Positions 15,084 through 51,765 are shown, counted from the first letter of the stretch. The stretch is 64,000 nt of DNA from Candidatus Eiseniibacteriota bacterium (GCA_963762255.1 CAVXKA010000001.1:704001-768000); one strand, 5' to 3'. Program-made: numbers and translations. The notes: generated from the letters alone by a model not told the origin.

Positions 15084-15223
15084 CCCAACCCTCCTTGGGC
15101 GGCCTCGGACCCGGACGGGAGGATCCATCAGCTATGAAAAAACGCCGCGCGCGCCTGGACGGAGGCGGCCGAAGCCGCAGCGCGCGCGGCGCAATAGGAT
15201 AGAACCTAACGTCACCGTAGAGT

Positions 15224-15240
15224 TGCAACCCGCGTGCCAG
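15224..15240 (-). promoter_or_regulatory. Sigma54 (-24/-12) promoter for the FHA gene
   Basis: Minus strand CTGGCACGCGGGTTGCA matches TGGCACG-N4-TTGCW exactly. AT-rich IHF-like tract at about 15270-15292 upstream. Confidence 0.8.
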
Positions 15241-15420
15241 TCGCAGCGATACGGCGGCGAACCCCGCAATTCGTTATTTGAAAGAAAGTTACAGCCCAAG
15301 TCCGCGCCAGCTCGTGTCCCTGGGCACCACCGCGCCGCCCTTTCCGATCCGGTCATTATTACCGACCATTACCTTTTTACTTGGTCGTCGGGCGGGGCCC
15401 GCTCTACACTCCGGGCCAGC

Positions 15421-25755: not shown

Positions 25756-27078
25756 GTGACCAAGGCCGAAATCCTCAAGATCTGCAAGACGGAAGGCGTC
25801 CGCTTCATGCGGCTCCAGTTCACGGACATTCACGGAGCCAACAAGAACGTCGAGCTGCCGGCCAGCCAGTTCCAGAAGGCCTTGGACGGAGAGATCATGT
25901 TCGACGGATCCTCGATCGAGGGGTTCACCCGCATCGAGGAGTCGGACATGCTCCTCCACCCGGATCTGACCACGTTCCGGATCTTCCCGCTCGACGGCGG
26001 TCGCGGGAAGGTGGCGCGGCTCGTCTGCGACGTGAAGATGCCGGACGGAGCCGACTTCGACGGCGATCCCCGCACCTGCCTCCGACGCATGACGGAGAAG
26101 GCGAAGAAGCTCGGGTACACGCTGATGGTCGGTCCCGAAGTGGAGTTCTTCCTCTTCCTGTTCGACGCGGACGGCGCGCCCTCGGTGAAGACCCACGACG
26201 CAGGCGCCTACTTCGATCTCGCCCCCATCGACAAGGGGGAAGAGTGCCGCCGGGACATCGTGCAGGCCCTCGAGGCGATGGGCTTCGAGGTGGAGGCCGC
26301 GCACCACGAAGTGGCCCACGGCCAACACGAGATCGACTTCCGCTACGGCGAGGCGCTGCACACCGCGGACAACGTAGCCACGTTCCGCTTCCTGGTGCGG
26401 CACATCGCCCGTCAGCACGGGCTTCACGCCACGTTCATGCCCAAGCCGATCTTTGGCCAGAACGGCAGCGGCATGCACTGCCACCAGTCGCTCTTCAAGG
26501 GGGACAAGAACTCCTTCTACGACCCGAAGGGCGACTACGAGCTGAGCAAGGTGGCCCTCCAGTACATCGCCGGCATCCTGCGGCACGCCAAGGGGTTCGT
26601 GGCCATCACCAACCCCATCGTCAACTCCTACAAGCGGCTGGTTCCGGGCTACGAGGCCCCCACCAACGTCGCGTGGTCGGAGCGCAACCGTAGCCCGATG
26701 GTCCGCATCCCCGCGCGCCGCGGTGTCGGCACCCGGTGCGAGGTGCGCCTCCCCGATCCCTCCTGCAACCCCTACCTCGCCTTCGCGGTGATGCTGGCGG
26801 CGGGTCTCGACGGGATCGAGAAGAAGATGGATCCCGGCCCCCCCGTGAACAAGAACGTCTTCCGGATGAGCGAGCGGGAGAAGCGGCGTCACAAGATCGA
26901 CGACCTTCCTTCGACGCTTTCGGAAGCGATCGACGAGCTGGAGAAGGACAAGGTGATCCTGGACGCGCTGGGCCCGCATCTCGCCCAGAGCTACGTCGAC
27001 GCGAAGAGGCAGGTCTGGACGGAGTTCCTGGCCCAGGTGCATCCTTGGGAGCTGGATCGGTATCTGGCGTACTACTAA
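25756..27078 (+). CDS. glnA: Glutamine synthetase type I (GSI-alpha-like)
   Basis: FDGSSIEGF, GPEVEFFLF, HHEVAHGQHEI, ATFMPKP, NGSGMH, NSYKRLVPGYEAP, NRS, EVRLPDP.CNPYL. Confidence 0.96.
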   Translation: MTKAEILKICKTEGVRFMRLQFTDIHGANKNVELPASQFQKALDGEIMFDGSSIEGFTRIEESDMLLHPDLTTFRIFPLDGGRGKVARLVCDVKMPDGADFDGDPRTCLRRMTEKAKKLGYTLMVGPEVEFFLFLFDADGAPSVKTHDAGAYFDLAPIDKGEECRRDIVQALEAMGFEVEAAHHEVAHGQHEIDFRYGEALHTADNVATFRFLVRHIARQHGLHATFMPKPIFGQNGSGMHCHQSLFKGDKNSFYDPKGDYELSKVALQYIAGILRHAKGFVAITNPIVNSYKRLVPGYEAPTNVAWSERNRSPMVRIPARRGVGTRCEVRLPDPSCNPYLAFAVMLAAGLDGIEKKMDPGPPVNKNVFRMSEREKRRHKIDDLPSTLSEAIDELEKDKVILDALGPHLAQSYVDAKRQVWTEFLAQVHPWELDRYLAYY

Positions 27079-31756: not shown

Positions 31757-32578
31757 TTACTCCTCGTCCTCGGGCGCCGCGGGGGGCGCCGGCGGCGCGG
31801 GCGCGTCGTCGTCATCCATCCACCACGGTCCGGGCCCCATTGGAGCGAAGCCGGGAAGATCGCCGCCCGGACACCCCATCCCCATCAGCGGGGCCTGATC
31901 GTCAACTGGAGATCCCAACCCCGCGCCAAAGCCTCGGCCCATGCCACGGCCACGGCCGACGCCCTGGCCCGCGCAGCAGCCGGGCTTGCAGGACACGCCC
32001 GCGCCGGGCCCCTGGCCCATGCCGGGTGCGCAGCTTCCCTGACCCATGCCGCGCCCCTGACCCATCCCGGCACCGCCGCGCCCTTGCATCCGCCCATGCC
32101 GGGAGTGCATGCCGTTGCGCGGCGCATCGCGGCGCATCTGCTTCAACTGCTCGCGCTGCTCCGTCGTGAACACCTCGCGGGTGGAGAGCCGCGCTTCCAG
32201 CCTCGCGTCGGCAGCCGCGGCCTGCAGGGCGCTCATCTCGCGATGCAGCGTGCGGATCTTGTCCTTGTCGAGGTTGTCGTTCATGAACTCGACGCGGATC
32301 TGCGCTTGAAGATCCGCCATCTTGCCGTGGCGCAGGACCTGCTGGCGCTGCGTGTCCTCGCGGATCGCGGCCAGCTTCTCCTTCTGCGCATCGGAGAGGT
32401 TCAGCTTTTCGGCCGCCTGCTCGCGCATCCCCATCTGGCGCATCTCCATCTTCGGCGCCGGCAACCCGTCGCGGACCCGTCCCCGCCGCGGTTGCGCATC
32501 GGCGATGGAAATCGCGGCAATGCTTGCGACGATCGCCAGCGCTCCTACCGTCATCATTCTTCTAGTCGTGCGTGTCAT
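31757..32578 (-). CDS. Spy/CpxP-like periplasmic protein with Gly/Met/Cys-rich tail
   Basis: Signal peptide, LNLSDAQ and FTTEQR (LTxxQ) motifs, GMGQG repeats. Confidence 0.8.
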   Translation of the reverse strand: MTRTTRRMMTVGALAIVASIAAISIADAQPRRGRVRDGLPAPKMEMRQMGMREQAAEKLNLSDAQKEKLAAIREDTQRQQVLRHGKMADLQAQIRVEFMNDNLDKDKIRTLHREMSALQAAAADARLEARLSTREVFTTEQREQLKQMRRDAPRNGMHSRHGRMQGRGGAGMGQGRGMGQGSCAPGMGQGPGAGVSCKPGCCAGQGVGRGRGMGRGFGAGLGSPVDDQAPLMGMGCPGGDLPGFAPMGPGPWWMDDDDAPAPPAPPAAPEDEE

Positions 32579-33105
32579 GGTCTTTCGTTCCTTTCGTTCA
32601 TCCGGCCCGGACTCTCGGTTTCCGGCCCCCATTCCATCTCGTGAATCTTGCGGCGCTGTTCGGGGGTGAAGATCGCGCCTTCGCGGAGCATGGCCTCCGC
32701 CACCAAACTGTCGAGCTGTGCTTGCAGCATGTTCACCATCCGCGCCTGCCGGTGGACCAACTCCCGATCCTCCTCGAGAAGCGCCTTGCGCATGAGCGTC
32801 CGCTCGCGCAGGAGGTCCTCGCTGCGGGCGCGTATGGCCTCGCGCAGCTCCTCCAGCGAAGCACGCAACTGTGTTTCCTGCTCCGGCGTGAGATCGAGAG
32901 CCTGGCTCAGCCGATCCACCCGCCGCTGCGGCCACTGGCGCATGAGGCCCATAGGCCTCTGCCCGAACCGATGAAGAGGGCCGGGCGAGATCGCCGGCGG
33001 GGGGGGCGCCCGGTGCACATCCGACCAATGCACGATCGCGCCCGAGACGAATCCCACGTTGAGGGCAATCGATACGACAAGGAGGATCCACAGCCCGCGT
33101 CTCAT
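32575..33105 (-). CDS. Periplasmic heavy-metal sensor/ZraP-CpxP-like protein
   Basis: LLVVSIALNVG N-terminal anchor, LDLTPEQ and FTPEQR; ATGA overlaps with both neighbours. Confidence 0.8.
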   Translation of the reverse strand: MRRGLWILLVVSIALNVGFVSGAIVHWSDVHRAPPPPAISPGPLHRFGQRPMGLMRQWPQRRVDRLSQALDLTPEQETQLRASLEELREAIRARSEDLLRERTLMRKALLEEDRELVHRQARMVNMLQAQLDSLVAEAMLREGAIFTPEQRRKIHEMEWGPETESPGRMNERNERP

Positions 33106-33626
33106 CGCTGCGCCTCCTCGCCCGTCGACTCGGTGTTGGCGCCGAGATCCTCGTCGAGATACGCGGCGGCGAGCGATCCCGACGGGGTGTCCAGAAGCGC
33201 GGAGAGGTCGAGCGCTTCCGCGCCGTTGCCGGTGTCGCTGACGACCGTATCCGACCCCGCTCCGAGCAGCGCGCGTCCCGCTACATGTCCACCCACCAAC
33301 GCGATCGCCATGAGACCCAATCCCGCGTAGGCCACGGGGGTGTGCAGGGCCTCGCCCATCGCGATCCGCCAGCGGGGCCGCAGCACCGGCACCGTGGTGC
33401 CGCCGCGCGGGCGGTCCAAGGCTTCCGCGACCCGCGGCCACAAGGGCGTGTCGGGTAGGGTCGAGGCCGGGTCGGTTTCCAGAACCGCCCACATGACCCG
33501 GGTCGCGGAAAGGAGATTGCGGCAGCGCGCGCATTCGGTGACGTGGTCCTCGGCTTGCCGGGCCTCCTCGGGGGAGGCCTCGCCAAGGGCCAATCGCGCT
33601 GCCTGTGTGTCGTTGAAGTGCTTCAT
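33102..33626 (-). CDS. Zinc-finger (zf-HC2) transmembrane anti-sigma factor
   Basis: H...HVTECARC (HxxxCxxC), one TM helix, directly downstream of the ECF sigma gene. Confidence 0.85.
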   Translation of the reverse strand: MKHFNDTQAARLALGEASPEEARQAEDHVTECARCRNLLSATRVMWAVLETDPASTLPDTPLWPRVAEALDRPRGGTTVPVLRPRWRIAMGEALHTPVAYAGLGLMAIALVGGHVAGRALLGAGSDTVVSDTGNGAEALDLSALLDTPSGSLAAAYLDEDLGANTESTGEEAQR

Positions 33627-33771
33627 GTTCCTTCACCCGCGCGCTCGCCCGACCGGTGGGGAGCGCTCTAGGTACACCCGGCATAACCCGCCACCGGGGA
33701 GAATCCTGCGGGGCGGGAGGATCTTTTTCGGAGAGGGCGACATCGGGCGCCGGACCCGCCGCCGCCCGGGA

Positions 33772-34347
33772 TCAGCCGGCGCCCAGTCCCTTGCGCAGCG
33801 CTGCCATGCCGCGGACCAGGAGCGACTCGACCGCCGAGACCGAGATTCCCATCGCCTCGGCGATCTCGTCCTGCGTGAACCCCTCGAATCGTTTCAACAT
33901 AACCGCCACGCGTTGTCGCTCGGGGAGCTTGAGCAGAGCGTGTCGCACCCGCTCGGCGTCGCGGGTGCGCGTCCACACGATGTCGGGGCGATCCGCGTCC
34001 GCGGCTTCCACGCTCAGGACCGCGTCCTCGTCGCCCTCCACACCCGATTCGCCCCAAGTCAGGAGCCTACGCACGCTACGGCGTCGAATCTCGTTGCGGG
34101 CCAGGTTTCCGGCGATCCGAAAGAGAAACGGGGCGAACCGACCTCGGGAAACGTAGGTGGGCGCGGCGCGATGGAGCCGGATGAACGTCTCTTGCGCCAG
34201 GTCGGCCGCGTCATCCGCGGAGCCCAGGCTCCGGAAGAAGAACGCGAGCACGCGACGCTCCCAGCGCTCGACCAACACCCGAAACGCCGCTTCGTCTCCG
34301 GTGGCGGAGGCGCTCATCAGGGCATCGTCGTCGCGCAGATCGGTCAT
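33772..34347 (-). CDS. ECF (sigma70 family) RNA polymerase sigma factor
   Basis: GDEAAFRVLV, DLAQETFI, FLFRIAGN, LPERQR, EIAEAMG..SAVESLL.RG. Confidence 0.93.
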   Translation of the reverse strand: MTDLRDDDALMSASATGDEAAFRVLVERWERRVLAFFFRSLGSADDAADLAQETFIRLHRAAPTYVSRGRFAPFLFRIAGNLARNEIRRRSVRRLLTWGESGVEGDEDAVLSVEAADADRPDIVWTRTRDAERVRHALLKLPERQRVAVMLKRFEGFTQDEIAEAMGISVSAVESLLVRGMAALRKGLGAG

Positions 34348-34441
34348 GATCGAGCGAGCATACTATCTGCACACCGCCCCCTGACAAGGACGTCGCCAAG
34401 CCGGTGACAGCGTGCGATGGCCTGGGCTATGCTCCGCAGCC

Positions 34442-35446
34442 ATGAAACGCACCGGATACCTCATCGCGCTCCTGGTCGTGCTCGTCGTGGTCGTCCTGGC
34501 CGTTCTCGTCGCGCGCAAACCCCGCACGGGGGCGCCGTCGCAAGCGGCCATGCAATCGACCGCCCTCTATCGCGAGGCGGCCGGCTTCGTGTCTCCGGAC
34601 AGCCTCGGTCCCGCCTGGCCCGGCGAGGATGTCCTGCGCGCGGTGCGCGGCGAATGGCGCGCGCTCGGCTTCCGCGACTCGATGATCTGCGAAGAGCTGA
34701 CGCGAGCGGCGATGTATCCGGACGACGGGGAGCCCCTCATCGTGCCCAACGTGTCTCAAACCCCCACCGGATCGAGCGTGGAACTCACCGAGCGGCTCCG
34801 CTTCGGGGAACGCCTGCTCGCCCACCCGCGCTGGCGCATGGGATCGCTGCGCCACTTCCCGGTATTGGCAGCCACGCTTTCCTCGACCGAGAAGAGCGTG
34901 CTCGCCTATCTCTCGGGGCCCGGCCGCAAGCCGACGAAGCTCGACTCTCTGGCGATGGCCCTCGACCTTCCGCGAGAAGAGGTCGCGCCCGTGTTGACGA
35001 CCCTCCAGTCGGTCGGTTGGGTGCGCGCCGACGTCGCCGCGGATTCGACGCTCTACACGATCGCCGATCCTTCGATCGCGAAGGGGGGCGCGTTACAGTT
35101 TGTGGAGATCGCAGCGGGCGCGGGGAGGCCGATGGACATGGTGTCGATCGCGGCCGTGTTCGCCCGCACCTCGCCGACGCTCTTCGCGAGCCGGGTCGTG
35201 CTGCGCGGACCCTGCGCCGCCACCGGACGAACCGTCGTCATCGAAGTGGGCGCGGGCAAGCTCTTCCGAGGCCGCCCCGGCAGCGCGTGGGCCGCGGAGA
35301 TCCGGCCTCCCGGTCGCAGCTCCGGACTCTTCGTGTCCCAGCGAGCCTTCGAGCGGTGGCGGGCCGAACATCCCGACGTGCAGGTGGGCGCGCAGAGCAC
35401 CGTGCTCGATCTGTATCGAATCGAGCGAAGCGGCGTGAGCGAATAG
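34442..35446 (+). CDS. Membrane-anchored protein with winged helix and MerB (organomercurial lyase)-like C-terminal domain
   Basis: N-terminal TM; wHTH (LDSLAMALDLPREEVAPVLTTL); C-terminal VLRGPCAATGRTVVIEV...LFVSQRAFERWRAEHP resembles MerB as recalled. Confidence 0.6.
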   Translation: MKRTGYLIALLVVLVVVVLAVLVARKPRTGAPSQAAMQSTALYREAAGFVSPDSLGPAWPGEDVLRAVRGEWRALGFRDSMICEELTRAAMYPDDGEPLIVPNVSQTPTGSSVELTERLRFGERLLAHPRWRMGSLRHFPVLAATLSSTEKSVLAYLSGPGRKPTKLDSLAMALDLPREEVAPVLTTLQSVGWVRADVAADSTLYTIADPSIAKGGALQFVEIAAGAGRPMDMVSIAAVFARTSPTLFASRVVLRGPCAATGRTVVIEVGAGKLFRGRPGSAWAAEIRPPGRSSGLFVSQRAFERWRAEHPDVQVGAQSTVLDLYRIERSGVSE

Positions 35447-35507
35447 ACGGTTCCTCGGCGCTGCTGGGTCAGACCGCGTTTCCCTCGGCCGAAACCAGCC
35501 ATGGAAT

Positions 35508-35532
35508 TAACTCATTTATTTTGAATGAGTTA
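35508..35532. promoter_or_regulatory. AT-rich inverted repeat, IHF-like or regulator binding site
   Basis: TAACTCATT-tattttg-AATGAGTTA: perfect 9-bp arms about 160 bp upstream of a sigma54 promoter. Confidence 0.55.
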
Positions 35533-35690
35533 GGGCCCTAAACACCCCCGCTTGCGGCCACCGGGGACGCCGGCACTCGTCGATTTCCCCAGGGCGGCGC
35601 CCGGGCGCCGCTGACGTATCCCGGGCCAGCCAGACATTTAACGTGTTACCGCACAATGGGTTGCAACTGGATCCGCTGCGCCGGAAACGC

Positions 35691-35707
35691 TTGGCACGAC
35701 CCCTGCT
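35691..35707 (+). promoter_or_regulatory. Sigma54 (-24/-12) promoter
   Basis: TTGGCACGACCCCTGCT: GG(35693-4)-N10-GC(35705-6), perfect TGGCACG; predicted +1 near 35718. Confidence 0.75.
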
Positions 35708-35715
35708 CTTTACCC

Positions 35716-36018
35716 GGGCGAACGCCCTCGCAAGGGGATCACCGAAAGGTGAAGCGGTTCGCCCGTCGGAGCGGGGCTAGGAGCCAACCCTCTCCAGTCC
35801 AACTCCCCTCCTCGCCGGCTTTGACTTCGCACCGGCGGGCGGCCGATCCCCTGGAAGGCGCCAGACTTGGTGGCCGGTTGCAGTGACACTGTGTTCCCGG
35901 AAAGCGCCCCTGAGGTCTATGGGCCGGCCACCAGATCTTCGAAGCGCACGAGCGTTGCTGAGCGGGGCCCGGCAAGGGACCTGGGTGATTCCTCCTCCTC
36001 ACCCGGGTCCCTCTTTTT
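35716..36018 (+). ncRNA. Candidate sigma54-dependent structured small RNA (about 300 nt)
   Basis: Lies between a sigma54 promoter and an intrinsic terminator. 5' three-way junction with GCAA and GAAA tetraloops, long stem TGGTGGCCGG/CCGGCCACCA, CCUCC-rich segments; no credible ORF. Confidence 0.65.
35975..36018 (+). terminator. Rho-independent terminator with CU-rich loop
   Basis: 14-bp stem AGGGACCTGGGTGA/TCACCCGGGTCCCT (one G-U), loop TTCCTCCTCC, followed by CTTTTT. Confidence 0.8.
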
Positions 36019-36045
36019 GTGGGGCGGGAGGGGAGAGACCGCCGG

Positions 36046-36903
36046 CTAGACCTTCGGCTTCGCCGCCACTTCGTCGACCTCGATGATGCGGTCGAGGCGG
36101 AAGTCCCGATCCTCTTTGCGCAGGTGGCAGTACGCCCGCATGTTCATCCCCTTGATGTTCTTGGGGGTCACGCGCCGATACGTCTGGCCGCCGCTCCCGC
36201 GGTAGGTGATCTCGAGATCCATGTGCGTCTCGATCGCTCGCCGGATGCTCTCCACCACCAACTGAAAGCTGTTCTCCTCGCGCCCGTGCCCCCCGATCGA
36301 GAACTGGTACGAAGTGCGGTAGCCGGGAACGCGCGTAATGTCGTCCTGGCCGCGCTGGTGGTACTCGGCCAGGTAATGGAGCAGCACGCGTCCGGCCATG
36401 CGCGCATCGTCGAGCGCGCGGTGGGCGTGCGGACCTTCGATGCCCAGCCGGTTGGCAAGAACTCCGAGCGTGAACGGACCGGTGTCGTCCTGCGCCCGCG
36501 CCAACTCCAGGGTATCGAGCACGGGGTTCCCCACCTGATTGCGGCCCATCTTCTCGAGCTTGTACTGGAGGAACCCCATGTCGAACTCGGCGTTGTGGGC
36601 CACGATGATGGCATCGGAAAGGAGCGGCAGGAACTGATCCGCCAGATCCTCGAAGCGCGGCTGCCCCGCGAGCATCTCGGGTGTGATGCCGCTCACTTGC
36701 GCGGCGGCCGGATCGAGCGGCCGGCCCGGATCGACCAGCGCGCTGTACTCCTTGACGATCTCTCCGTCTTCGAACCGCGCCAACCCGATCTCGCAGATCT
36801 CGTCGCCGACAGCGGGATAGAGCCCCGTGGTCTCGAAATCGATGACCGCGAACGCGCGCGCCAGAAGAGGATTGGGCAACTCGCTGAACAGATCGAAGGA
36901 CAT
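36046..36903 (-). CDS. DEDDh 3'-5' exonuclease (DnaQ-like) fused to a C-terminal WYL domain
   Basis: VIDFETTG, VAHNAEFD, LDTL, HRALDDA; C-terminal IRRAI...LEITYRG...RRVTP...AYCHLRKEDRDFRLDRI. Confidence 0.88.
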   Translation of the reverse strand: MSFDLFSELPNPLLARAFAVIDFETTGLYPAVGDEICEIGLARFEDGEIVKEYSALVDPGRPLDPAAAQVSGITPEMLAGQPRFEDLADQFLPLLSDAIIVAHNAEFDMGFLQYKLEKMGRNQVGNPVLDTLELARAQDDTGPFTLGVLANRLGIEGPHAHRALDDARMAGRVLLHYLAEYHQRGQDDITRVPGYRTSYQFSIGGHGREENSFQLVVESIRRAIETHMDLEITYRGSGGQTYRRVTPKNIKGMNMRAYCHLRKEDRDFRLDRIIEVDEVAAKPKV

Positions 36904-37061
36904 CCGGAATCCTTTGCGGAGGGGTGTGACTCGATACGATGTCGCTATCTTAGCGGCTCGGAGGGCGTTGCGAAACCCACGCGCGGCTCGCCGCCACCGG
37001 ATGCGCGCGCGGCCCGTGGTACACTCCTCGCCGCCGCAAGACATGGGAAAGGACCCCAAAC

Positions 37062-39606: not shown

Positions 39607-40236
39607 TCACTTCAGCGCGTAGGAAAGACTCTCCAGCTCGATGGCCAGGTTCACGTTGCGCAGGTTCACGTGATCGGGCAAGAACAGCTTCTTTGGCGCG
39701 AAGTTGAGGATCCCGCGCACGCCCGCCCGGACGAGACGGTCGGCCACATCCGCCGCCGCGGCCGCGGGGGTGGTGATGATGCCTATCTCGATGCGCTCCT
39801 TGTCGACGGCATCCGAGAGCTCGTCGATCGACCGCACCAGCATCCCATTCCAATCCTGGCCGATCTTGTCGGGATCGTTGTCGAAGACGGCCATGATCTC
39901 GAATCCCTCGCGCGCGAATTCCCGGTACGCCACCAGCGCGTGGGCGAGGTTTCCGGCGCCGACCAACCCCACGCGCCAGCTTCGGTTGAGACCGAGGATC
40001 GTGCGGATCTCGATTTCGAGCTGGGACACCGAATACCCGGTGCCGCGCTTGCCGAAGTGCCCGAAGAGCGAGAGGTCCTTGCGCACCTGCGCCGGGGTGG
40101 CGCCGGCGCGGCGCGCGAGTCCGTACGAGGACACGGTCTCTTCGCCCGCGGCGCGCAGGTCACCGAGGATGCGGTAGTACCCCGAGAGCCGGCGCACGGT
40201 GGGATCCGAAATGCGGAGCTCCTCCGCTGCGTTCAC
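39607..40236 (-). CDS. rex: Redox-sensing transcriptional repressor Rex
   Basis: [40 protein letters not shown]. Confidence 0.95.
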
Positions 40237-42869
40237 TCGTTCTCCTCGCCGTCATCCTCGTCTTCTTCGATGTCGATGTCGTCGTCGAGGTCGACGTCCT
40301 CCTCGTCTTCGGTCAGGTCGTCGTCCCCCGCGCCGTCCCCCTCGATCGCCTCGTCGTCCTCGGCGACGTCCTCCAACCCCTTGACGGCGCCGGCTGCGGC
40401 CGCCCCGCCACCACCCACGACGCCGGCCTCCTCTTCGTCGTCCTTCACGATGCGGGCGACATCGGCCACGGTATCGCCGGCCTCGAGGTTGATCAGGCGG
40501 ACCCCCTGGGTGTTGCGGCCGAGCACCGAGACGTCGTGGATGGGGAGCCGGATCACGATGCCGTTGCGACTCGTGATCATGAGTTCATCGTCGGACTTCA
40601 CCTCGCGGATCGCGATCAGCGTGCCGTTCCGCGTGGAGGGCTTGATGGTGATGATGCCCTTCCCGCCGCGGCCGGTCACGCGGTAGTCCTCGACCCGACT
40701 CCGCTTGCCGAACCCGTTGGCGGTCACGGCGAGGATCTCCGAGTCCTCGCGTTGCAAGACCACCATTCCGATGACGTCGTCCTGATCGGTGTCCAGGGTC
40801 ACGCCGCGCACGCCGCGCGTGTTGCGTCCCATGGACCGTACCTTGGATTCGTTGAATCGGATGGCCCTGCCGAGGCGCTTGGCCAGCACGACCTCCCTGC
40901 GCCCATCTGTGAGGACGACGTCGATGATCTCGTCCCCCTCGTCCAGCGCGATCGCGATGATGCCGTCGCGGCGGACGTTGGCGTACGCGGTGAGGTTGGT
41001 CTTCTTGACCTGCCCCTTCTTGGTCGCGAAGAGGAGGAAGTAGGCGGGATCGAAGTCCCGCACCGCGGCCACCGAAGCGATACGCTCGCCCGCCTTCAGC
41101 ATGACCAGGTTCACGATGGCCTTGCCCTTGGCGGTGCGGCCTCCCTGCGGAATCTCGTGGACCTTGAGCCAGTAGACGCGGCCCATGTTCGTGAACACGA
41201 GCACGTAGGAATGCGTCGACGCGATGAAGAGGTGCTCGACGAAGTCGTCCTCGCGGGTGGTCTGGCCGGTGACCCCGCGGCCGCCGCGGCGCTGGCGGCG
41301 GTAGGTGTTCACCGGGAGCCGCTTGATGTAGCCGAGGTGGCTGATGGTGATGACCATGTCCTCGTCGGCGATGAGATCCTCCACCGAGAACTCGCCCTCC
41401 GCCGACCGGATCTCCGTGCGGCGCCGGTCGCCGTACTTGGCCTTGAGTTCGACCATCTCCCCCTGGATGAGATCGAGCACCCGCCGCTCGCTAGCCAGGA
41501 TCGCCTTGTACTCGGCGATCAGGAGTTGCAGCTCCGCGTACTCCGCCTCGATCTTGCCGCGCTCGAGGCCGGTGAGGCGCGCCAGACGCATGTCGAGGAT
41601 CGCCTGAGCTTGCAGGTCCGAAAGCCCGAACTGCCGCATGAGGCCGTCCTTGGCCTCGGCGGGGTCCTTGCTGGCGCGGATGAGATGGACCACCGCGTCG
41701 ATGTTGTCGAGGGCGATGCGAAGCCCTTCCAGGATGTGGGCGCGCTTCTCCGCCTGATCGAGGTCGTACTGGGTCCGCCGGACGATGACCTCCCGGCGGT
41801 GCTCGATGAAGTGCCGGATCATCTCCTTCAGGGTCATGGTCACCGGCCGGTTGTTCACGAGGGCCAGCAAGTTGGCGCCGAAGGTCTGCTGCATCTGAGT
41901 GTGCTTGAAGAGCTGGTTCAGGATGACCTGGGAGGCCACGTCGCGCTTCAGCTCGATCACGATCCGCATGCCGTTGCGGTCGGACTCGTCGCGCAGATCG
42001 GAGACGCCGTTGATGGCGCCGGAACGCACGAGGTCGGCGATCTTCTCGAGGAGCGCCGACTTGTTGACCATGTACGGGATCTCGGTGACGAGAATGACCT
42101 CGCGGTTGTTCTCCATCACATCGATCGTGGCCCGCGCGCGAACGGTGATGAGCCCGCGGCCGGTGGCGTACGCACTGCGAATCCCATCCCGCCCCATGAT
42201 GATGCCGCCGGTGGGGAAGTCGGGGCCCGGCACGATCTGGAGCAGCTCCTCGTCGGTCAGGTCGGGGTTGTCGATCAGCTCCGACACCGCGTCGGCCACC
42301 TCGTTGAGGTTGTGCGGCGGCACGTTGGTGGCCATGCCCACCGCGATCCCGGCCGCGCCGTTGCAGAGCAGATTGGGGAAACGTCCGGGGAGCACCACCG
42401 GCTCCTCGCGGACGTTTTCGTAGTTGGGACGGAAATTGACGGTCTGCCGGTCGATCTCCGAGAGCATCTCCATGCCGACCGGGGAGAGGCGCGCCTCGGT
42501 GTACCGCTCGGCCGCTGCCGAATCGCCGTCGACGCTGCCAAAGTTCCCCTGGCCGTCCACCAGCGGGTAACGCAGCGAGAAGTTCTGGGCAAGACGCACC
42601 ATCGCGTCGTAGATCGCCGAGGTGCCGTGGGGGTGATAGTTACCGTTGACGTCCCCGGTGATCTTGGCGCTCTTGCGATACGGCCGATCCGGGGAAAGGT
42701 TGAGGTCGTTCATCGCGACCAGAATCCGGCGCTGCACCGGCTTCATACCGTCGCGCACATCGGGAAGCGCCCGGTTCACGATGACCGACATCGAGTAGTC
42801 GAGATACGCGGTGCGCATCTCATCTTCAATGGCCGCGGGAATCACGCGCTTCCCTGCTTCGTCTGCCAT
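40233..42869 (-). CDS. gyrA: DNA gyrase subunit A
   Basis: [35 protein letters not shown], GyrA-box QRRGGRG, acidic tail. Confidence 0.97.
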
Positions 42870-43133
42870 TCCAACTCCTTGGTCTTCAACGGGTTGCTAA
42901 TCGCGCCGAGCGGGTGGGGGCGGCCGTCGGGCCCGCGAGACACACGCCTGCCGGTGGGGGAATAAGCAGGGGTCGAAACGCTGAACCGAATCGTGGCCAG
43001 GACGGGTTGCCCCCCCGTCGCACAAGTCGGAATTGTATAGAGTTAGGCCGATTTCAACCAGCCTGTTTCTCGGGCCGGAGCGAGGCCGCGCCGGGGGCCG
43101 CGCAGCCCGCCTGAAGGCCGCGGGTCATCGTCC

Positions 43134-44297
43134 CTAGAGCGCGACCTTCGCCGCCCACCGCACCAGCGGGTAGCTCAGGCTGATGCTCTGCGACACACGG
43201 CCGTCCAGCTCCAGGAAGCGCCACTTCCATCCCAGGCCCAGGCTGATCTCCGGCTCGCGCAGGGAGCCCGCGGTGTCGCGACTTCGGGATGTATCCCCGG
43301 AAGAGATCCCCATGCCGAGCCGACGCTCATCGGTGATCGTGAAGGTCGCGGGCGCCACGACGCCTGCGCGTACGATGAGATCCTTGGACACTTCTTTCTC
43401 GCCGGACAGGAAGAGGTTTCCGCTGTAGACCGTCTTGCTGCTGGCGCGAATCTCGGTGGAGCTGTACCCGCCGCCCAGCGTCATGGTGGTCCGGTCGGAC
43501 CAACTGACGCTGGCCCCGATCACGAGATCGTCCAGCTTCTCGTGGCGCAATCGCCACCCGAGGTCCAGCGAAAGCGTCTTGCGCACCAGATCGACCGAAT
43601 ACGGCCCGCTCCATTTCGGCCGCAGATCTTCATAGGAGAACCGGGCCGCGGCGAGAAGCCCGGAGTCCACGGCGAGGGTGCGCAGGCCGATCTCTCCGCC
43701 GAGCCCCGAGTCGCCATCGAATCGCACCGACCCGGAATCGATGTCCCCGCCACTACCGAGCTGGTAGAACCTCGACTCGCCCTCGCTCTGGATCAGGGAG
43801 CCCGCCGTCGCGATCTCGAAGATGCGCCCGTTTTCGTCCCCGGCCCGCCATCCCAGACCCAGCCGAAACGCCCGTTCGGCGTTCTCGGAACGATTGGCAT
43901 TCTCGGAATTCACTTCGAGCCCCGTGCCGGTTGCGCCACGGTGGAAGTAGACCCTGTCATCCTCACTGCTCGAATAGCCATCCCGAAAACCGAGGGTCAT
44001 TCCCCATCGCGAAGGCCCGCTCACGATCAGGTTATGGGTCTTGCCGTCCACGAGGTAGCCGTAACGAAAGCTCTCTCCCATCAGAACCAGGGCCAGGTCG
44101 TCATCCAGTAGCACCTCGGATCCGTTCATTCCCGCAAGGGCCGGGTAGAGGAACAGCACCGAGGCGTCCGAGGCAAGACCGCCCGGAAGCGCGCGGGATT
44201 CGAGCGCCGCTCGCGATGCGCGGGCCGGTGCCGCCGCGAGAAGAACGCCCACTGCCAGGACCCAAACCATCATCCATTGCCGCATTGTCGTCATCAT
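43134..44297 (-). CDS. Putative outer-membrane beta-barrel protein (paralog of neighbour)
   Basis: Signal peptide, beta-strand pattern, C-terminus LGLGWKWR...PLVRWAAKVAL. Confidence 0.6.
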   Translation of the reverse strand: MMTTMRQWMMVWVLAVGVLLAAAPARASRAALESRALPGGLASDASVLFLYPALAGMNGSEVLLDDDLALVLMGESFRYGYLVDGKTHNLIVSGPSRWGMTLGFRDGYSSSEDDRVYFHRGATGTGLEVNSENANRSENAERAFRLGLGWRAGDENGRIFEIATAGSLIQSEGESRFYQLGSGGDIDSGSVRFDGDSGLGGEIGLRTLAVDSGLLAAARFSYEDLRPKWSGPYSVDLVRKTLSLDLGWRLRHEKLDDLVIGASVSWSDRTTMTLGGGYSSTEIRASSKTVYSGNLFLSGEKEVSKDLIVRAGVVAPATFTITDERRLGMGISSGDTSRSRDTAGSLREPEISLGLGWKWRFLELDGRVSQSISLSYPLVRWAAKVAL

Positions 44298-44308
44298 CCC
44301 GCGCTCCT

Positions 44309-45556
44309 TCAGAAGGACACCCGCGCAGCCCATCGCATGAGGGGTGCGTCCCAAGAGAAATCGTTCTGGACCCATGCCTCCACGTCGAGTGATCGCCATC
44401 GCCAGCCGCCCCCCAATCGGATGTCCGGCCCAAACATCGCCTGCATCACCTTGCGTGTGTTGACGACCTCCCACTCGGGGTCGCCGAGTTTGTAGGGTTC
44501 GACCGGGGAGGCATACTCCCGCTCGGTGACATCCCTCATGAACGGGGTACGCACGCCGCCTCGGAGGGTGAGGAAATCGCCCACGCGCTCTTGCATGGAG
44601 ATGAAGACCACCCCCGTCCAATCGGTCGAGACCGTGTGGTCCACCGTTACGGCTTTGGGTTCCACCCGGGGCTTGGATTCCTCAGAACGAGAGCGCAGCA
44701 CCTCGATGCCCACCAGCACCTCATCCACCGCGCCCGGACGCATACGCCAACCCGATTGCAGGACGCCTTGCTCGAAGGAATCCGTCCACCCCGGCCGCCC
44801 CGAGTTCCGAGCATCCCATCGATCCCGACGATAGTGCGCGGCGAGAAGAAGCCCGGGGCGCGAGGTCGCCGTGCGCGCGGCCACCTCGAATCGGACCCCG
44901 CCGCGCAGGTCCCAGGTTTCGGGTTGCCTGGTGGCGATCGAGTCCGTCGGGTCCTCCCCCCACCACTCGGTGGTCCCATCCACGACCCCGCCGGCCATCG
45001 CCACCTCGAAGGTGCGTCCCGAGGGGCTCCGCATCATCCACTCGGCACCCACCCGCGCTTCTCGGGTCTTGAGTTCATTGCCGTAATGCGAGCCCCACGT
45101 CAGCGAGTCGTGCATCCAGACGCTTTCGTACTCGTTTCCGGCCACATACTGCCGCCATCCAAAGGAGAGCCCCCAACCGCCGACACCGGCCAGAAGGAGC
45201 GTGTGCGTGTCCCCGTCAAGAAGGTAGCCCGCACGGAGCGCCCCGCGCCCCGCCAGAGCAAGCGCGAAGTCTTGCCGCGCCGTGTCCTCGACGTACCACG
45301 AGTCTTCCCCGCCGACATTCGCCACAAGGCTTGAACCCCAGACCTCCCGCCGGTCATAGAGCAGGCACGCGGCAAATCCGGACGCGGAAGCAGGAAAGAG
45401 CGCCAGCGATCCCTCATCCGGGGCGAGAAGATCCGGAAGGGCCTTGGCGGCCAACGCAGTCGGCGTTGCCCCGACTCGACGCGCGGGGCCGGCCAGACTC
45501 GACACCATCGTCAGGAGGCCGACCACCCCGACGACGATGCCCCTGCCCAGCCTCAT
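44309..45556 (-). CDS. Putative outer-membrane beta-barrel protein (paralog of neighbour)
   Basis: Signal peptide, shared GYL.DG.TH.L motif, C-terminus LGGGWRWR...PLMRWAARVSF with terminal Phe. Confidence 0.6.
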   Translation of the reverse strand: MRLGRGIVVGVVGLLTMVSSLAGPARRVGATPTALAAKALPDLLAPDEGSLALFPASASGFAACLLYDRREVWGSSLVANVGGEDSWYVEDTARQDFALALAGRGALRAGYLLDGDTHTLLLAGVGGWGLSFGWRQYVAGNEYESVWMHDSLTWGSHYGNELKTREARVGAEWMMRSPSGRTFEVAMAGGVVDGTTEWWGEDPTDSIATRQPETWDLRGGVRFEVAARTATSRPGLLLAAHYRRDRWDARNSGRPGWTDSFEQGVLQSGWRMRPGAVDEVLVGIEVLRSRSEESKPRVEPKAVTVDHTVSTDWTGVVFISMQERVGDFLTLRGGVRTPFMRDVTEREYASPVEPYKLGDPEWEVVNTRKVMQAMFGPDIRLGGGWRWRSLDVEAWVQNDFSWDAPLMRWAARVSF

Positions 45557-45566
45557 ACCGCCCCTC

Positions 45567-46529
45567 CTATACATGATTACGGAGCATCAACTCTTTGGGG
45601 TGTGGATCGAGGTACGCCTGACCCAGAAGATACTCCTGGTTCCCTGCCCGTGCGTGATGCCGGATCAGCGTGATGGGGACGATGAGCGGCACGAGACCGG
45701 TTCGGTAGTCGTCGACGACCTGGGTCAGCTCCGCGCGCGAAGCCGCATCCAGGTCCCGCTTGAAGTAGCCCGCCATGTGCTGCAGCACGTTGGTGTGCTT
45801 GCGCACGGTCGTGCGCTCGGCAACGGCCTGCATGAACGCGGTCCCGTACTGCGCCTTCGCCGCAGCGGCCCCCAGTTCCTTAGCCCGCGCCACGAGGCGC
45901 CCGAGTTCCACGTATCGCTTCGGACTGTGGGAAAGCAGGAGCAGCTTGTGTGCGGTGTGGAAGGCCACCAGCCGCCCCGTCGTGTACCGCTCATTCAGGA
46001 AGTCCATCCATCGGCGGTAGGCGAAGACGCGCTCGATGAAGTTCTCGCGCAGCACGGGGTCGTTGAGGCGCCCCTCCTCCTCAACCGGCAGAAGCGGGTA
46101 TCGCTCCATGAGGGCGCACGCAAAGAGCCCCACGCCGCCGCGGCCCGGCACCCGCCCCTCGGCGCCGTACACCTTCACCCGCTCCATGCCGCAACTCGGG
46201 GAATTCTTCTTGAGGATGTACCCGCAGAGCCCCGCCGAGTCCAGCTCCTCTGCGCGCCGGCGCGAGTAGGCTTCCATGGCCCGCGTGTGATCCGTGCCGG
46301 ACCGCGTTCCCACCATGCGCGGTGAGGCGGGCTCTCCCTGCAAGCGCACCGGCTCTCGGGGAATGCCCATCCCCACCTCGACCTCGGGACAGACGGGGAC
46401 GTACGTGACGAAGCGGCCGAGCGTGTCGGTGAGAAACGGATCCCGCTTGTGGCCGCCGTCGAAGCGCACCTGCTCGCCGAGAAGGCACTGCGAGATCCCG
46501 ATGCGGATCGCCTGCCCCGCGGCCTCCAC
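45567..46529 (-). CDS. DUF523 (2-thiouracil desulfurase-like) + DUF1722 (YbgA) fusion protein
   Basis: GISQCLLGEQVRFDGGHK, CPEVEVGMGIPRE, LKKNSPSCG, EEEGRL, NVLQHMAGYFK, YL..Q.YL.PHP. Confidence 0.92.
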   Translation of the reverse strand: MEAAGQAIRIGISQCLLGEQVRFDGGHKRDPFLTDTLGRFVTYVPVCPEVEVGMGIPREPVRLQGEPASPRMVGTRSGTDHTRAMEAYSRRRAEELDSAGLCGYILKKNSPSCGMERVKVYGAEGRVPGRGGVGLFACALMERYPLLPVEEEGRLNDPVLRENFIERVFAYRRWMDFLNERYTTGRLVAFHTAHKLLLLSHSPKRYVELGRLVARAKELGAAAAKAQYGTAFMQAVAERTTVRKHTNVLQHMAGYFKRDLDAASRAELTQVVDDYRTGLVPLIVPITLIRHHARAGNQEYLLGQAYLDPHPKELMLRNHV

Positions 46530-46538
46530 GCCAGTCGC

Positions 46539-48786
<2,248 letters not shown>

Positions 48787-48860
48787 GCTTCGATGTCACT
48801 TGCGGACGAGCGCCCGCGGGCCGCGTGGCCGACCGGACCGCGATACGCCGTCGCCGGTGA

Positions 48861-49973
48861 TCACGCCTCCTGGAGCCGCAGCGGCATGACGAGGCAAAGC
48901 AGATCCTCGTTGGCCGCCTGTTGCACCGGTCGGAGAATCCCCGGGCTCAACGCAGTGTTCAGTTCGAGCTGCACGTCGGTGCCATCCATGGTCCGCAAGG
49001 CTTCCAAGAGGTACGCTGCGTTGTAGCCCACCGCGAGCGGCTCCCCGGCGTACTGGACCGTCACCATCTCCTGGCCTTCCCCGACGTCGGCCGTGCTCAC
49101 GCTCAAGTCCATCCGATTGGTGTTCACGCTCACCTTGATCTGGCGAGTCACGCTGTCGGAGAGTACGGCCACGCGGCGGAGGGCGGCGATGAGCTCGTCG
49201 CGGCGAATCGTGAGCTTCTTGGGGTTGTCCTTGGGAATGACCTGTTCGTACTGGGGGAAGTTTCCGTCGATGAGCCGCGAGAAGACGGTGGTAGGCCCCA
49301 CTTCGAAGACGGCGAAGTTCTTGCTCACGGCCAGGTTGATCGTCGCCTGACCGGCCGCCAATCGGACCACTTGTCCCAGAGCCTTCGGCGGAATGAGCAG
49401 GTCGCGGCCTTCCAGACCCTTGAACTCACCCTTGAAGGTAGCCTTGGCGAGCCGGTGCCCGTCGGTGGCGATCATTCTCAACTCGCCGCCCTTGAACTGC
49501 AGCAGGGCTCCGGTCAGGTTCTGGCGGGTCTCGTCGGTTCCGACGGAATACGTGGTCCGCCGAACCGCCTTATCGAGAGTCTCCGTCGGAAGGGTAACCA
49601 TCTTCTCCGCATCGACCTGGGGAAGGTGGGGAAAATCCTCCGGTCCCATGCCCACGATGGAGAACGTGCCGTTGGCGCAGGAAAGCTTCATTTTGGCGTC
49701 TTTGACGGTTACCTTGATGTCCGCATCGGGCAGCTCGCGAACAATCTCTCCCATCCGCTTGGCGGGTACGGTGACCCGACCGGTCTCCGTGACTTCGGCT
49801 TCGCCGCGGGTGCGAATCGAGATATCAAGGTCGGTCGCGACAAGCGTCAGGCCTTCCTTGTCGGCTTCGATGAGAATGTTCGAGAGGATGGGGAGGGTGC
49901 TCTTGGCCGGCACCGCACTGACTACGATTTGCAGGAGCTCCTGCAGGGCTCCCTTGGAAATGGAGAACTTCAT
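48861..49973 (-). CDS. dnaN: DNA polymerase III beta sliding clamp
   Basis: PILSNIL, ATDLD, ATDGHRL, RLIDGNFPQY, LVMPLR. Confidence 0.97.
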   Translation of the reverse strand: MKFSISKGALQELLQIVVSAVPAKSTLPILSNILIEADKEGLTLVATDLDISIRTRGEAEVTETGRVTVPAKRMGEIVRELPDADIKVTVKDAKMKLSCANGTFSIVGMGPEDFPHLPQVDAEKMVTLPTETLDKAVRRTTYSVGTDETRQNLTGALLQFKGGELRMIATDGHRLAKATFKGEFKGLEGRDLLIPPKALGQVVRLAAGQATINLAVSKNFAVFEVGPTTVFSRLIDGNFPQYEQVIPKDNPKKLTIRRDELIAALRRVAVLSDSVTRQIKVSVNTNRMDLSVSTADVGEGQEMVTVQYAGEPLAVGYNAAYLLEALRTMDGTDVQLELNTALSPGILRPVQQAANEDLLCLVMPLRLQEA

Positions 49974-50057
49974 TCTGGATTCCCTTCACTCCGATCGGAA
50001 CGAACCTGACGAGCCTGGTGCGTTCGCATGAGGCGGGGTCACTAAACTCGAACCGGG

Positions 50058-50087
50058 ATTATAGCCCCCGTTTCCGTCGTTTCACAA
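50058..50087 (-). promoter_or_regulatory. Candidate sigma70 promoter of dnaN
   Basis: Minus strand TTGTGA-18 nt-TATAAT. Confidence 0.45.
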
Positions 50088-50179
50088 GGCTCCTTCCCCT
50101 CAATAACGCGTTGTCACGAAGCCAGATGAGTCACCTCCGCGTATGCGGGAAACAACCCTTCCCCTCTCGTGCATCGCGG

Positions 50180-50395
50180 TCCTGGGGAGAACAGGTCTCC
50201 TTCTTCCTATAGGTATTAGAAAGGTAGTTGTAGTAGTAGGGAACCAAAAACGGTGGAGAACCGACAGGGTCTCAATGAAAGCGTTGCTGCTTGCCGTGTT
50301 ACCTGTTCGGCACCTGTCACCGCTTCTCCCCAGCTTTCCGGACTTCTCCCCGGAGACTCGGTCCAACCCGAGCTCCGGGGAGGTTGTCCACGTCT
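50180..50395. other. oriC downstream sub-region: unwinding element with DnaA-trios and degenerate DnaA boxes
   Basis: TAG-TTG-TAG-TAG-TAG at 50225-50239 beside box-like GGTGGAGAA (50252-50260). Further box-like sites at 50183, 50324, 50344 and 50384; dnaA-dnaN intergenic region. Confidence 0.75.
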
Positions 50396-50406
50396 TTTCC
50401 GGAACG

Positions 50407-51765
50407 TTACGACCTTCCGCGCAACCGCTCTTCCAGCTCTTCCACCGTACGCTTGTATTCGGGATCGACATCCATCATCTCGCGCACGCGCTCGCACGCG
50501 TAGAGAACGGTCGTGTGATCGCGACCGCCAAATGCCTTGCCGACATCCGTGAGAGCCATCTCGGTGAGACTGCGACAGATATACATCGCGGTCTGCCGAG
50601 GGACCACGATCACGTTCGTGCGTCGCTTTCCCTTGAGCGATTCCACGGTGGTGTGGAACTGCTGGGCGACCGCTTTGCTGATCGCGGCAGCGTCGGGACG
50701 GGAGGCCTTGCCGCCGCGCATGAAGTCGGTGAGGACATGGTTGGCCAGATCCACCGAGATCGTGCTGCCGGTCAGGGTGGCGACCGCTACCAGCCGGACG
50801 AGAGATCCCTCAAGTTCACGGATGTTGGAGCGGACGTTTTCAGCGATGAGGAGTGCGACATCCTCGGGGAGGTGGACGCTTTCGGTTTCCGCCTTCTTGC
50901 GGAGGATGGCCACCCGCGTCTCGAGATCGGGCGGCTGGAGATCGGCCACCAGGCCCCAGTGAAAGCGGCTCACCAGCCGCTCTTCCAGCATCCGGATCTC
51001 CTTCGGCGGCCGGTCGCTGGTCATGACGATCTGCTTCTTGGACTCGTACAAGGCGTTGAAGGTGTGGAAGAACTCCTCCTGCGTGCTTTCCTTGCCGGCC
51101 AGAAACTGGATGTCGTCGATGAGGAGAAAGTCCGCGCTGCGGTACTTGCGCTTGAAATCCAGCGTCTTGTTGTTCTGGATCGAGTAGATCATCTCGTAGG
51201 TGAACTTCTCGCTGGACACGTAGTACACCCGGGCAGTGGGGCGGCGGGCGAGGGCTGCGTTTCCGATGGCCTGCATGAGATGGGTCTTGCCCATCCCCAC
51301 TCCGCCATATAGGAAAAGGGGGTTGTAGGAAGTAGCGGGATTCTCCGCTACGGCCTTGCATGCGGCGTGGGCGAGTTGGTTGCTCTTGCCGACCACGAAG
51401 CTCTCGAACGTGTACTTCGGGTCCAGCCGAGGCGCCTCCTCGAACACTCGCGGGGGGCGGGGCGCGCCGGGGCGAGGGGCCGGCGACTCGTGCACCGAGT
51501 GCACCTCGAGGAGGGGATCCACTTTGAAGCGAATGTCGCGGCCGTCGCCGTAGGTCCGTGTCGCGGCGCGACGTAGTACGTCGAGGTAGTTCTCGGAGAG
51601 CCATTCAGCGGCGAACTGGTTGGGCACCCCGATGGTGAGCTTCTCATCGTCGATGGAATCGAAACGAATGGGGCGGAACCAGGTCTCGTAGGCCTGGTCC
51701 TGGACGCGAGATCGCACCTCCTGCAGGAACATCCGCCAGTCGGGAGACAGGGGCTCTGTTGCCAT
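50407..51765 (-). CDS. dnaA: Chromosomal replication initiator DnaA
   Basis: [60 protein letters not shown]. Confidence 0.98.

Follow-up and report, generated by a model that had tools for sequence, protein, structure and literature searches.

The locus and the candidate RNA

We analyzed a 64,000-nucleotide (nt) stretch of the genome of a Candidatus Eiseniibacteriota bacterium (GCA_963762255.1, CAVXKA010000001.1:704001-768000), here called the window, with positions counted from its first letter. In a gap of ~600 base pairs (bp) between a plus-strand gene ending at 35446 and a convergent gene for an exonuclease with a WYL domain (exonuclease-WYL, 37059-36046), a first-pass annotation had placed a structured RNA with a sigma54 promoter and exposed anti-Shine–Dalgarno motifs. 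The genome, G000, is 93.6% complete, consists of 3 contigs and has 67% G+C; to our knowledge, Candidatus Eisenbacteria has no cultured member. A conserved RNA gene at ~35718-36019 on the plus strand is well supported by our sequence comparisons. All sequence elements named in the first-pass annotation were found where it had placed them, and its central claim, an unannotated gene for a noncoding structured RNA that starts from a sigma54-type promoter and ends at an intrinsic terminator, is supported. The gene and its upstream region show the following features:

35508-35532, no strand: distal AT-rich palindrome TAACTCATTT-N5-GAATGAGTTA, containing an IHF-like box 184 nt upstream of TGGCA
35639-35663, no strand: proximal double IHF-like box, with TAACGTGTTA at -53 and CAATGGGTTG at -38 from TGGCA
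35692-35707, plus strand: sigma54-type -24/-12 promoter TGGCACGACCCCTGCT, with GG at 35693-35694 and GC at 35705-35706
35718-36019, plus strand: predicted transcript of ~300 nt, its start taken from the promoter geometry and its end from the terminator
35726-35752, plus strand: two small 5' hairpins, CCUC-GCAA-GGGG (35726-35737) and UCACC-GAAA-GGUGA (35739-35752)
35755-35785, plus strand: 5' arm of helix P2, CGGU-U-CGCCCGUCGG-A-GCGGGG-CUA-GGAGCC, pairing with 35817-35845
35786-35816, plus strand: C-rich terminal loop of P2, AACCCUCUCCAGUCCAACUCCCCUCCUCGCC, with CCUCC/CUCC anti-Shine–Dalgarno-like motifs
35817-35845, plus strand: 3' arm of P2, GGCUUU-GA-CUUCGC-A-CCGGCGGGCG-GCCG
35864-35937, plus strand: long helix P3, in which UUGGUGGCCGGUU (35867-35879) pairs with GGGCCGGCCACCAG (35922-35934)
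35891-35917, plus strand: P3 apex, GUGUU-CCCGGAA-AGCGC-CCCUGAGGUC, with two CCCUGA-like repeats; the most conserved element
35938-35974, plus strand: variable linker with a weak hairpin (helix 10, only 79.5% paired), shorter in the homologs of G003 and G002
35975-36019, plus strand: intrinsic terminator, a 14-bp hairpin (35975-36012) with loop UUCCUCCUCC (35989-35998) and tail CUUUUUG

A scan of Rfam 15, one of the checks proposed with the first-pass annotation, gave no family at gathering score, either in the 64-kb window or in four homologous loci (0 matches each). The best match below threshold was Caulobacter CC3664 (23.6 bits, with a cut-off of 60), reached via the long stem and the terminator; matches at permissive thresholds were at chance level. 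A literature search on Eisenbacteria and small RNA surfaced, among the records that it returned, only a survey of CsrA. As far as the Rfam and literature searches reach, the RNA is undescribed and forms a new family.

The annotation had also seen no credible open reading frame (ORF) in the gap, and this was borne out. The variable columns of the alignment showed no codon periodicity (45, 48 and 42 across the three positions), and 39 of 41 indel runs over five pairwise comparisons, the closest pair included, were of 1-2 nt. Stop-free frames of 55-106 codons occur on both strands, as frames of this length are expected at 67% G+C.

Conservation and distribution

We searched 41 related genomes with blastn and found homologs in G001, which belongs to the same genus as G000 (86% identity), and in G004, G006 and G007 (73-74%); a 29-nt match in G029 was taken as chance. 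A covariance model built from the five blastn sequences added G003 (78 bits) and G002 (61.7 bits), and the scores of the homologs under the covariance models ranged from 61.7 to 304 bits. Three of the homolog genomes belong to a second genus. The RNA is thus found in 7 of the 10 genomes of the order, all of them from one family (f1), where it is present in 7 of 8 genomes (6 of 7 besides G000). In G005, a genome of the same family in 440 contigs, neither the original nor the revised covariance model detected a homolog.

In a class sample, the covariance model matched 7 of 151 genomes. The revised model found nothing credible in the 151-genome phylum sample, nor in G005, G008 and G009, and four weak matches to it (17-22 bits) were rejected as terminator-type hairpins (L039, L041), coding sequence (L042) or repeat-rich sequence (L040). 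A further model, made from all seven sequences and covering the 3' half, scored the seven homologs at 109-164 bits and nine other genomes at 24.7-33.8 bits; the six of these nine weak matches that we inspected were terminators at gene ends, without the sigma54 element, the C-rich motif or the upstream box. The sigma54 element was present in none of ten inspected weak matches outside the family (17-34 bits). When all species-representative genomes were scanned with a pattern, 14 stretches came up; the 5 that were validated all came from known homolog genomes, and the others (in Mesorhizobium, Lachnospiraceae and others) were put down to chance. The same kind of scan of JGI metagenome contigs returned 8 stretches, and none was validated. 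Among the genomes searched, the RNA is confined to one family of Candidatus Eisenbacteria.

Secondary structure

The plus strand of the locus has a predicted folding energy of -164.9 kcal/mol (z -3.67), which was equaled by 1 of 100 shuffled sequences; the minus strand has a z of -1.33, with 8 of 100 shuffles as good. Covariation supports a fold consisting of two long helices and a terminator hairpin. In the first of the helices, P2, GUUCGCCCGUCGG pairs with the downstream CCGGCGGGCGGCC and the pairing continues inward through GCGGGG/CUUCGC and GGAGCC/GGCUUU, giving in all seven homologs a helix of 25-30 bp that closes the C-rich stretch as a terminal loop of 29-40 nt. P2 is kept throughout with largely different sequences, and only 0-1 of 200 shuffled 3' arms folded equally well. 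A model including P2 raised the scores of the divergent G003 and G002 to 85.2 and 77.5 bits, respectively, compared with 78 and 61.7 under the first model.

Conservation and covariation in relatives had been put forward as a test of the first-pass annotation, and we found the promoter, the C-rich stretch, the long stem and the terminator kept, the paired parts with compensatory changes. In the model-fitted alignment, which leans towards structure, 89.4% of the pair cells were paired, compared with 40-50% when the partners were slid, and 29 of 93 pairs were changed on both sides, compared with 5-11 when slid, a result that none of 500 shuffles matched. A structure-blind MAFFT alignment of the 3' half still gave 11 of 34 pairs changed on both sides. 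The long stem and the terminator proposed in the annotation are retained with compensatory changes in all seven homologs: in P3 (helix 7) 9 of 17 pairs were changed on both sides, and the helix was recovered on an independent MAFFT alignment too, and in the terminator stem 4 of 13 pairs were so changed. The proposed UCACC-GAAA-GGUGA hairpin is likewise upheld by compensatory changes, as CACC/GGUG is replaced by CGCC/GGCG; the count of 5' hairpins differs in G003 and G002. The terminator has the layout of a Rho-independent one, a hairpin rich in G+C followed by a U-run (CUUUUUG), and the U-run is found in 6 of 7 homologs. With a loop limit of 8, a simple terminator scan did not pick up this hairpin, whose loop is 10 nt.

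Other parts of the fold first proposed did not hold. The closing stem of its three-way junction, GGGCGAAC/GUUCGCCC, is intact solely in the window's own sequence when read from the alignment: six contiguous pairs are left in G001 and the three second-genus genomes have it disrupted, and half of its bases precede the predicted +1. The same +1 problem casts doubt on the outermost consensus helix (columns 1-6). The proposed hairpin with AGGA at its tip competes with P2, the long-range helix kept in all seven homologs. The C-rich linker is present as described and is conserved, but it forms the terminal loop of P2 instead of a linker.

The sigma54-type promoter and its upstream boxes

The TGGCACG at 35692-35698, with its GG-N10-GC spacing, was confirmed, and the geometry of the element puts +1 near 35718, as the annotation had it. 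TGGCAY-N5-CTGC is found in all seven homologs, 10-12 nt ahead of the conserved RNA body, although in G003 and G002 it was recognized only after the flanks were read. In the alignment with flanks, the edge of conservation coincides exactly with TGGCA, and the sequence 5' of it is not alignable. A simple promoter scan of 35300-36300 found no sigma70-like site. The genome G000 has one rpoN and 26 matches to the enhancer-binding-protein family PF00158, 23 of them strong. None of the enhancer-binding-protein genes adjoins the RNA, the nearest (window 15055-16794) lying ~19 kb away.

Upstream of the promoter we observed a recurrent box, YAAYNNRTTR. All seven homologs carry it at -53/-54 or -37 to -39 relative to TGGCA, and 6 of 7 have a copy at -183 to -190 as well. 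The 15 boxes counted over 7 x 300 nt compare with 0.28 expected, a number that none of 1000 shuffles equaled; the genome-wide density is 0.018 per 300 nt. The box core, CAA-N4-TTR, fits the consensus of IHF, and two genes of the HU/IHF family are found in G000. Within this genome, 8 of 64 sigma54-like sites, the RNA's own included, carry the box at -37 to -39 or -52/-53. It therefore looks, from its sequence and placement, like a general DNA-bending, IHF-type element set at a fixed distance in the sigma54 promoters of this organism. As other sigma54-like sites share it, the box backs the promoter call and is uninformative on which activator is involved. In the window, a sigma54-like site with the box also occurs at 15239 on the minus strand, beside the enhancer-binding-protein gene at 15055-16794.

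Conserved single strands and the host's Shine–Dalgarno sites

Three parts of the RNA are nearly invariant in all seven homologs. One is the core of the P2 loop, CCCUCUCC-AGUCC-NN-CUCC(U)CCUCCUCGC, whose AGUCC and CCUC/CUCC motifs are invariant or nearly so, another is the P3 apex, GUGUU-CCCUGAY-AGCGC-CCCUGAGGUC, and the third is the CUCCUCC of the terminator loop, found in 7 of 7. The conservation of CCUCC-type motifs claimed in the annotation thus stands, and the motif in the terminator loop is predicted to be unpaired with probabilities of 0.78-0.97 in all seven homologs. For the P2 loop, the predicted unpaired probability varies more widely across the homologs (0.33-0.93); with the RNA starting at +1, opening the loop costs 0-3.6 kcal/mol in 6 of 7 homologs and 8.8 in G001. 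Among hairpins with C-rich loops and stems of at least 8 bp, of which the genome has 62, only the terminator of the RNA combines a stem of >13 bp with a run of five T.

The 3' end of the host 16S rRNA reads ...CACCUCCUUUCU / ...GGAUCACCUCCUUUCU and terminates in CCUCC, and the loops of the RNA copy the core of this anti-Shine–Dalgarno sequence. Upstream of 3037 ORFs with crudely assigned start codons, GGAG is enriched 4-6 fold at -9 to -14, with 94-120 counts per position at -9 to -12 compared with 13-26 at -40 to -21. The enrichment indicates that the organism uses Shine–Dalgarno sites of the GGAG type, in support of the reading in the first-pass annotation. In G000, with its 93.6% completeness, we found no match to Hfq (PF17209) or to CsrA (PF02599), and both Hfq-dependent and CsrA-sponge readings were dropped for this reason. 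A CsrB/Rsm-type sponge for CsrA is also disfavored by the GGA motifs, which are few and either lie inside helices or are unconserved.

Neighboring genes

The exonuclease-WYL gene (36046-37059, minus strand) encodes a DEDDh (RNase_T/DnaQ-like) exonuclease with a C-terminal WYL domain (RNase_T 5.5e-34, WYL 6.2e-07), and its end is 27 nt from the terminator of the RNA. This gene and a PTPS gene lie beside the RNA in 3 of 6 relatives and are absent there in the three-genome genus. The upstream gene (34443-35446, plus strand) is kept adjoining the RNA in 4 of 6 relatives and is missing within 1.5 kb of it at L012 and L015. Its product carries a membrane helix at the N-terminus, is faintly MerB-like at the C-terminus and gives a weak winged-helix signal, with no Pfam family above cut-off; we rejected it as an activator of the RNA, as it is a membrane protein and not an enhancer-binding protein. 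Between its stop codon and the RNA there are ~245 nt of unconserved sequence. The RNA is tied to neither neighbor, which argues against a role in cis.

Further upstream, the minus strand at 31757-34347 encodes an ECF sigma factor (33772-34347), a zf-HC2 anti-sigma factor (33102-33626) and an LTXXQ/Spy-like protein (31757-33091); an arginine-rich plus-strand ORF overlapping this cluster (33340-34407) is probably spurious. Elsewhere in the window, glnA is found at 25756-27078, and a cluster of replication-origin type occupies 40233-51765 on the minus strand (dnaA 50407-51765, dnaN 48861-49973, gyrB 46539-48536, gyrA 40233-42869).

Sequences from RNA libraries

Six runs recorded as RNA contain part of a 701-nt query from the locus. 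We compared four RNA-library runs over 1101 nt; their contigs carry neither strand nor transcript ends and possibly contain DNA. In X12 and X18, which come from different studies, the contigs span 35661-36120 only and leave both flanking genes uncovered. From X16 comes a 1178-nt contig of a relative that resembles the window from 35692 onward, and no contig was placed for X17; uncovered parts prove nothing. As a sign of expression, the contigs are a weak hint.

A proposed function and its alternatives

Our analysis gives about an even chance that the RNA is a trans-acting regulator, controlled by sigma54 and an enhancer-binding protein, that pairs with G-rich ribosome-binding sites independently of Hfq. 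Judging from the sequence and conservation of the -24/-12 element, it would be read by RNA polymerase with sigma54 and would need an enhancer-binding protein, which DNA bending at the IHF-like box 38-53 bp upstream may assist. The transcript would begin near 35718, terminate at the hairpin and U-run near 36019, and show its CCUCC/CUCCUCC motifs in the 29-40 nt loop of P2 and in the terminator loop. By analogy with known RNAs, these C-rich motifs could pair, free of Hfq, with ribosome-binding sites of the GGAG type or other G-rich segments of mRNA, and translation initiation would then be blocked for as long as the sigma54 signal is on.

Several results weigh against such a function. Ranking 31,396 candidate start regions by duplex energy singled out no targets, as any G-rich sequence dominates, and the ranking is uninformative because of the 67% G+C of the genome. 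Searches with the complements of the loops and the apex returned the locus itself and matches with 1-2 mismatches in chance-like number; two of the matches, just ahead of start codons on the minus strand (C1:818779 and C2:1235762), are leads only. No G-rich ribosome-binding site precedes the upstream syntenic gene. The pairing model does not account for the P3 apex, which is the most conserved element and no CCUCC motif, and with ~90 pairs in 300 nt the RNA is large for one that acts by simple base pairing. For the C-rich loop in the window's genus, the predicted unpaired probability is just 0.33-0.43, as the loop can pair with the GGAG of its own 5' arm. On the side of transcription, the strict sigma54 pattern has 24 sites in G000, approximately the chance number by our estimate from base composition, so that it is the conservation and the box that carry the promoter call; the terminator in G006 lacks a U-run; and of the RNA-library contigs, one begins at 35661, 31 nt upstream of the promoter, and one reaches 36120, 100 nt beyond the terminator.

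As the pairing model leaves the apex unaccounted for, a role in protein binding stays the main rival, if an unlikely one: the RNA would be a sponge or a component of a ribonucleoprotein, with the repeats of the P3 apex and the C-rich loops as protein sites and a protein being sequestered. No part is better conserved across all seven homologs than the apex, GUGUUCCCuGA..AGCGCCCCUGAG, in size and helix content the RNA resembles 6S or CsrB-type RNAs more than the typical base-pairing kind, and no mRNA target came out of the duplex ranking or the complement searches. A scaffold, however, has no candidate partner here, with CsrA and Hfq not found in G000 and the GGA motifs few and paired or unconserved; the neighboring genes are not kept across all seven, and loops identical to the 16S anti-Shine–Dalgarno core are read more simply as pairing modules. 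There is a small likelihood that the RNA is instead a large global riboregulator under sigma54/IHF control and not an ordinary base-pairing small RNA, in a lineage with neither Hfq nor CsrA detected, acting as a decoy whose 16S-like anti-Shine–Dalgarno sequences titrate the Shine–Dalgarno sites of many mRNAs simultaneously or as a ribonucleoprotein built on the invariant P3 apex. Improbable, in our judgment, is a switchable RNA in the window's genus, in which GGGCGAAC at the 5' end and GGCGGGCG downstream compete for GUUCGCCCG and the display of the C-rich loop is conditional; the GGAG of the 5' arm would compete for the CUCC motifs, under co-transcriptional, ligand or temperature control, for example. 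When bases upstream of +1 are included, the minimum-energy fold of the window's sequence is indeed the junction of the first-pass annotation, at most 0.4 kcal/mol separates the conserved P2 fold from the minimum when the RNA starts at +1, and the low openness of the C-rich loop in this genus fits as well; but the alternative 5' stem is unconserved outside the genus and lies partly upstream of the predicted start, and no conserved pocket of the ligand type is evident.

The neighbors would matter more if the element were linked in cis, as a 3' untranslated region of the 34443-35446 gene or a processed end from it, or as an antisense or termination element for the exonuclease-WYL gene. The partial synteny with both genes is consistent with this, as are the contig starting upstream of the promoter and the one entering the end of the exonuclease gene. 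We nevertheless consider it quite improbable, since conservation opens at the sigma54 element only after the ~245-nt unconserved spacer behind the upstream stop codon, neither neighbor is kept in all seven homologs, and the RNA is equipped with a promoter and a terminator of its own. A small protein gene, or a regulatory region acting as DNA with no RNA product, has the stop-free frames on both strands in its favor. We regard either as very improbable, given the even spread of changes over codon positions, the indels of 1-2 nt even between the closest relatives, and compensatory pair changes that are strand-specific and helix-specific.

Relation to known RNAs

For trans-acting pairing with ribosome-binding sites, the nearest comparison is NfeR1 of the rhizobia, a member of the alpha-r14 RNAs. 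The NfeR1 study describes CCUCCUCCC exposed redundantly in three loops, silencing of mRNAs at the translation initiation region and independence of Hfq, and according to it the nfeR1 promoter carries no sigma54 signature (PMC10746234). The two RNAs are alike in carrying several unpaired copies of CCUCCUCC(C) on hairpins whose stems vary while the motif is fixed, in NfeR1 being Hfq-independent and no Hfq being found in G000, and in the link of NfeR1 expression to a stress or nitrogen regulatory circuit. Compared with the three hairpins of the NfeR1 type, we found two display sites, CUCCUCC in the terminator loop of 7 of 7 homologs and CCUCC/CUCC in the P2 loop. The RNA described here has no sequence or structure homology to alpha-r14 by Rfam 15, whose scan, including any alpha-r14 model in it, gave no match. 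It comes from another phylum, has a sigma54-type promoter, and carries a 29-40 nt loop on a 25-30 bp helix together with a conserved apex; it is also about twice as long as the alpha-r14 RNAs. The resemblance to alpha-r14/NfeR1 is functional and does not amount to family membership.

Small RNAs dependent on sigma54 include Qrr, CrcZ, GlmY and NrsZ. Of the sequence features of this class, we found a conserved GG-N10-GC spaced correctly from the RNA 5' end together with rpoN, and the RNA resembles them in being a stand-alone gene with a -24/-12 promoter, an intrinsic terminator and presumably one enhancer-binding protein. None of their Rfam models matches it, however, and the effector motifs differ; their genes also commonly adjoin that of the activator, unlike the gene here. 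With RsaE/RoxS, cuckoo/CcsR and sX13 it shares C-rich single-stranded motifs repeated in one RNA, but it is much larger, has no Rfam homology to them and is limited to a single family within an uncultured phylum.

6S RNA, which the first-pass annotation had not excluded, is of a comparable size class and highly structured, with long imperfect helices. We rejected this assignment, as RF00013 matches elsewhere in the genome (G000:C2:243811-243989 and C1:103435-103588; 87.3 and 49.6 bits, respectively) and not at this locus, and as 6S RNA folds into a single rod with a central bubble whereas the consensus here has several domains. The second of the 6S-like matches (49.6 bits; G000:C1:103393-103588, L008) is itself preceded by a sigma54-type -24/-12 element, TTGGCATCACCCCTGCAA. 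The same 18 nt and the same 6S-like RNA are kept in G001 (L047:600-789), where the flanks differ, and the locus may thus encode a sigma54-driven 6S-like RNA.

The architecture of the RNA at 35718-36019 is unusual: it measures ~300 nt, a long helix in it bears a very large C-rich loop, and it has an invariant apex. Its likely working principle, sigma54-dependent expression and display of anti-Shine–Dalgarno sequence, is a known one, and the RNA would then extend known kinds of regulators and found no new one. Seven sequences with a covarying structure, together with promoter and terminator, make the candidate family well defined and fit for submission to Rfam. It opens a way into the group's sigma54 regulon, the shared IHF-like promoter box included, and offers a testable case of anti-Shine–Dalgarno mimicry beyond proteobacteria and firmicutes, in a genome with no detected Hfq or CsrA. 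If the RNA is indeed a global riboregulator, it would, together with the sigma54-type promoter at the second 6S-like RNA, point to a layer of global control in Eisenbacteria that consists of RNAs commanded by sigma54.

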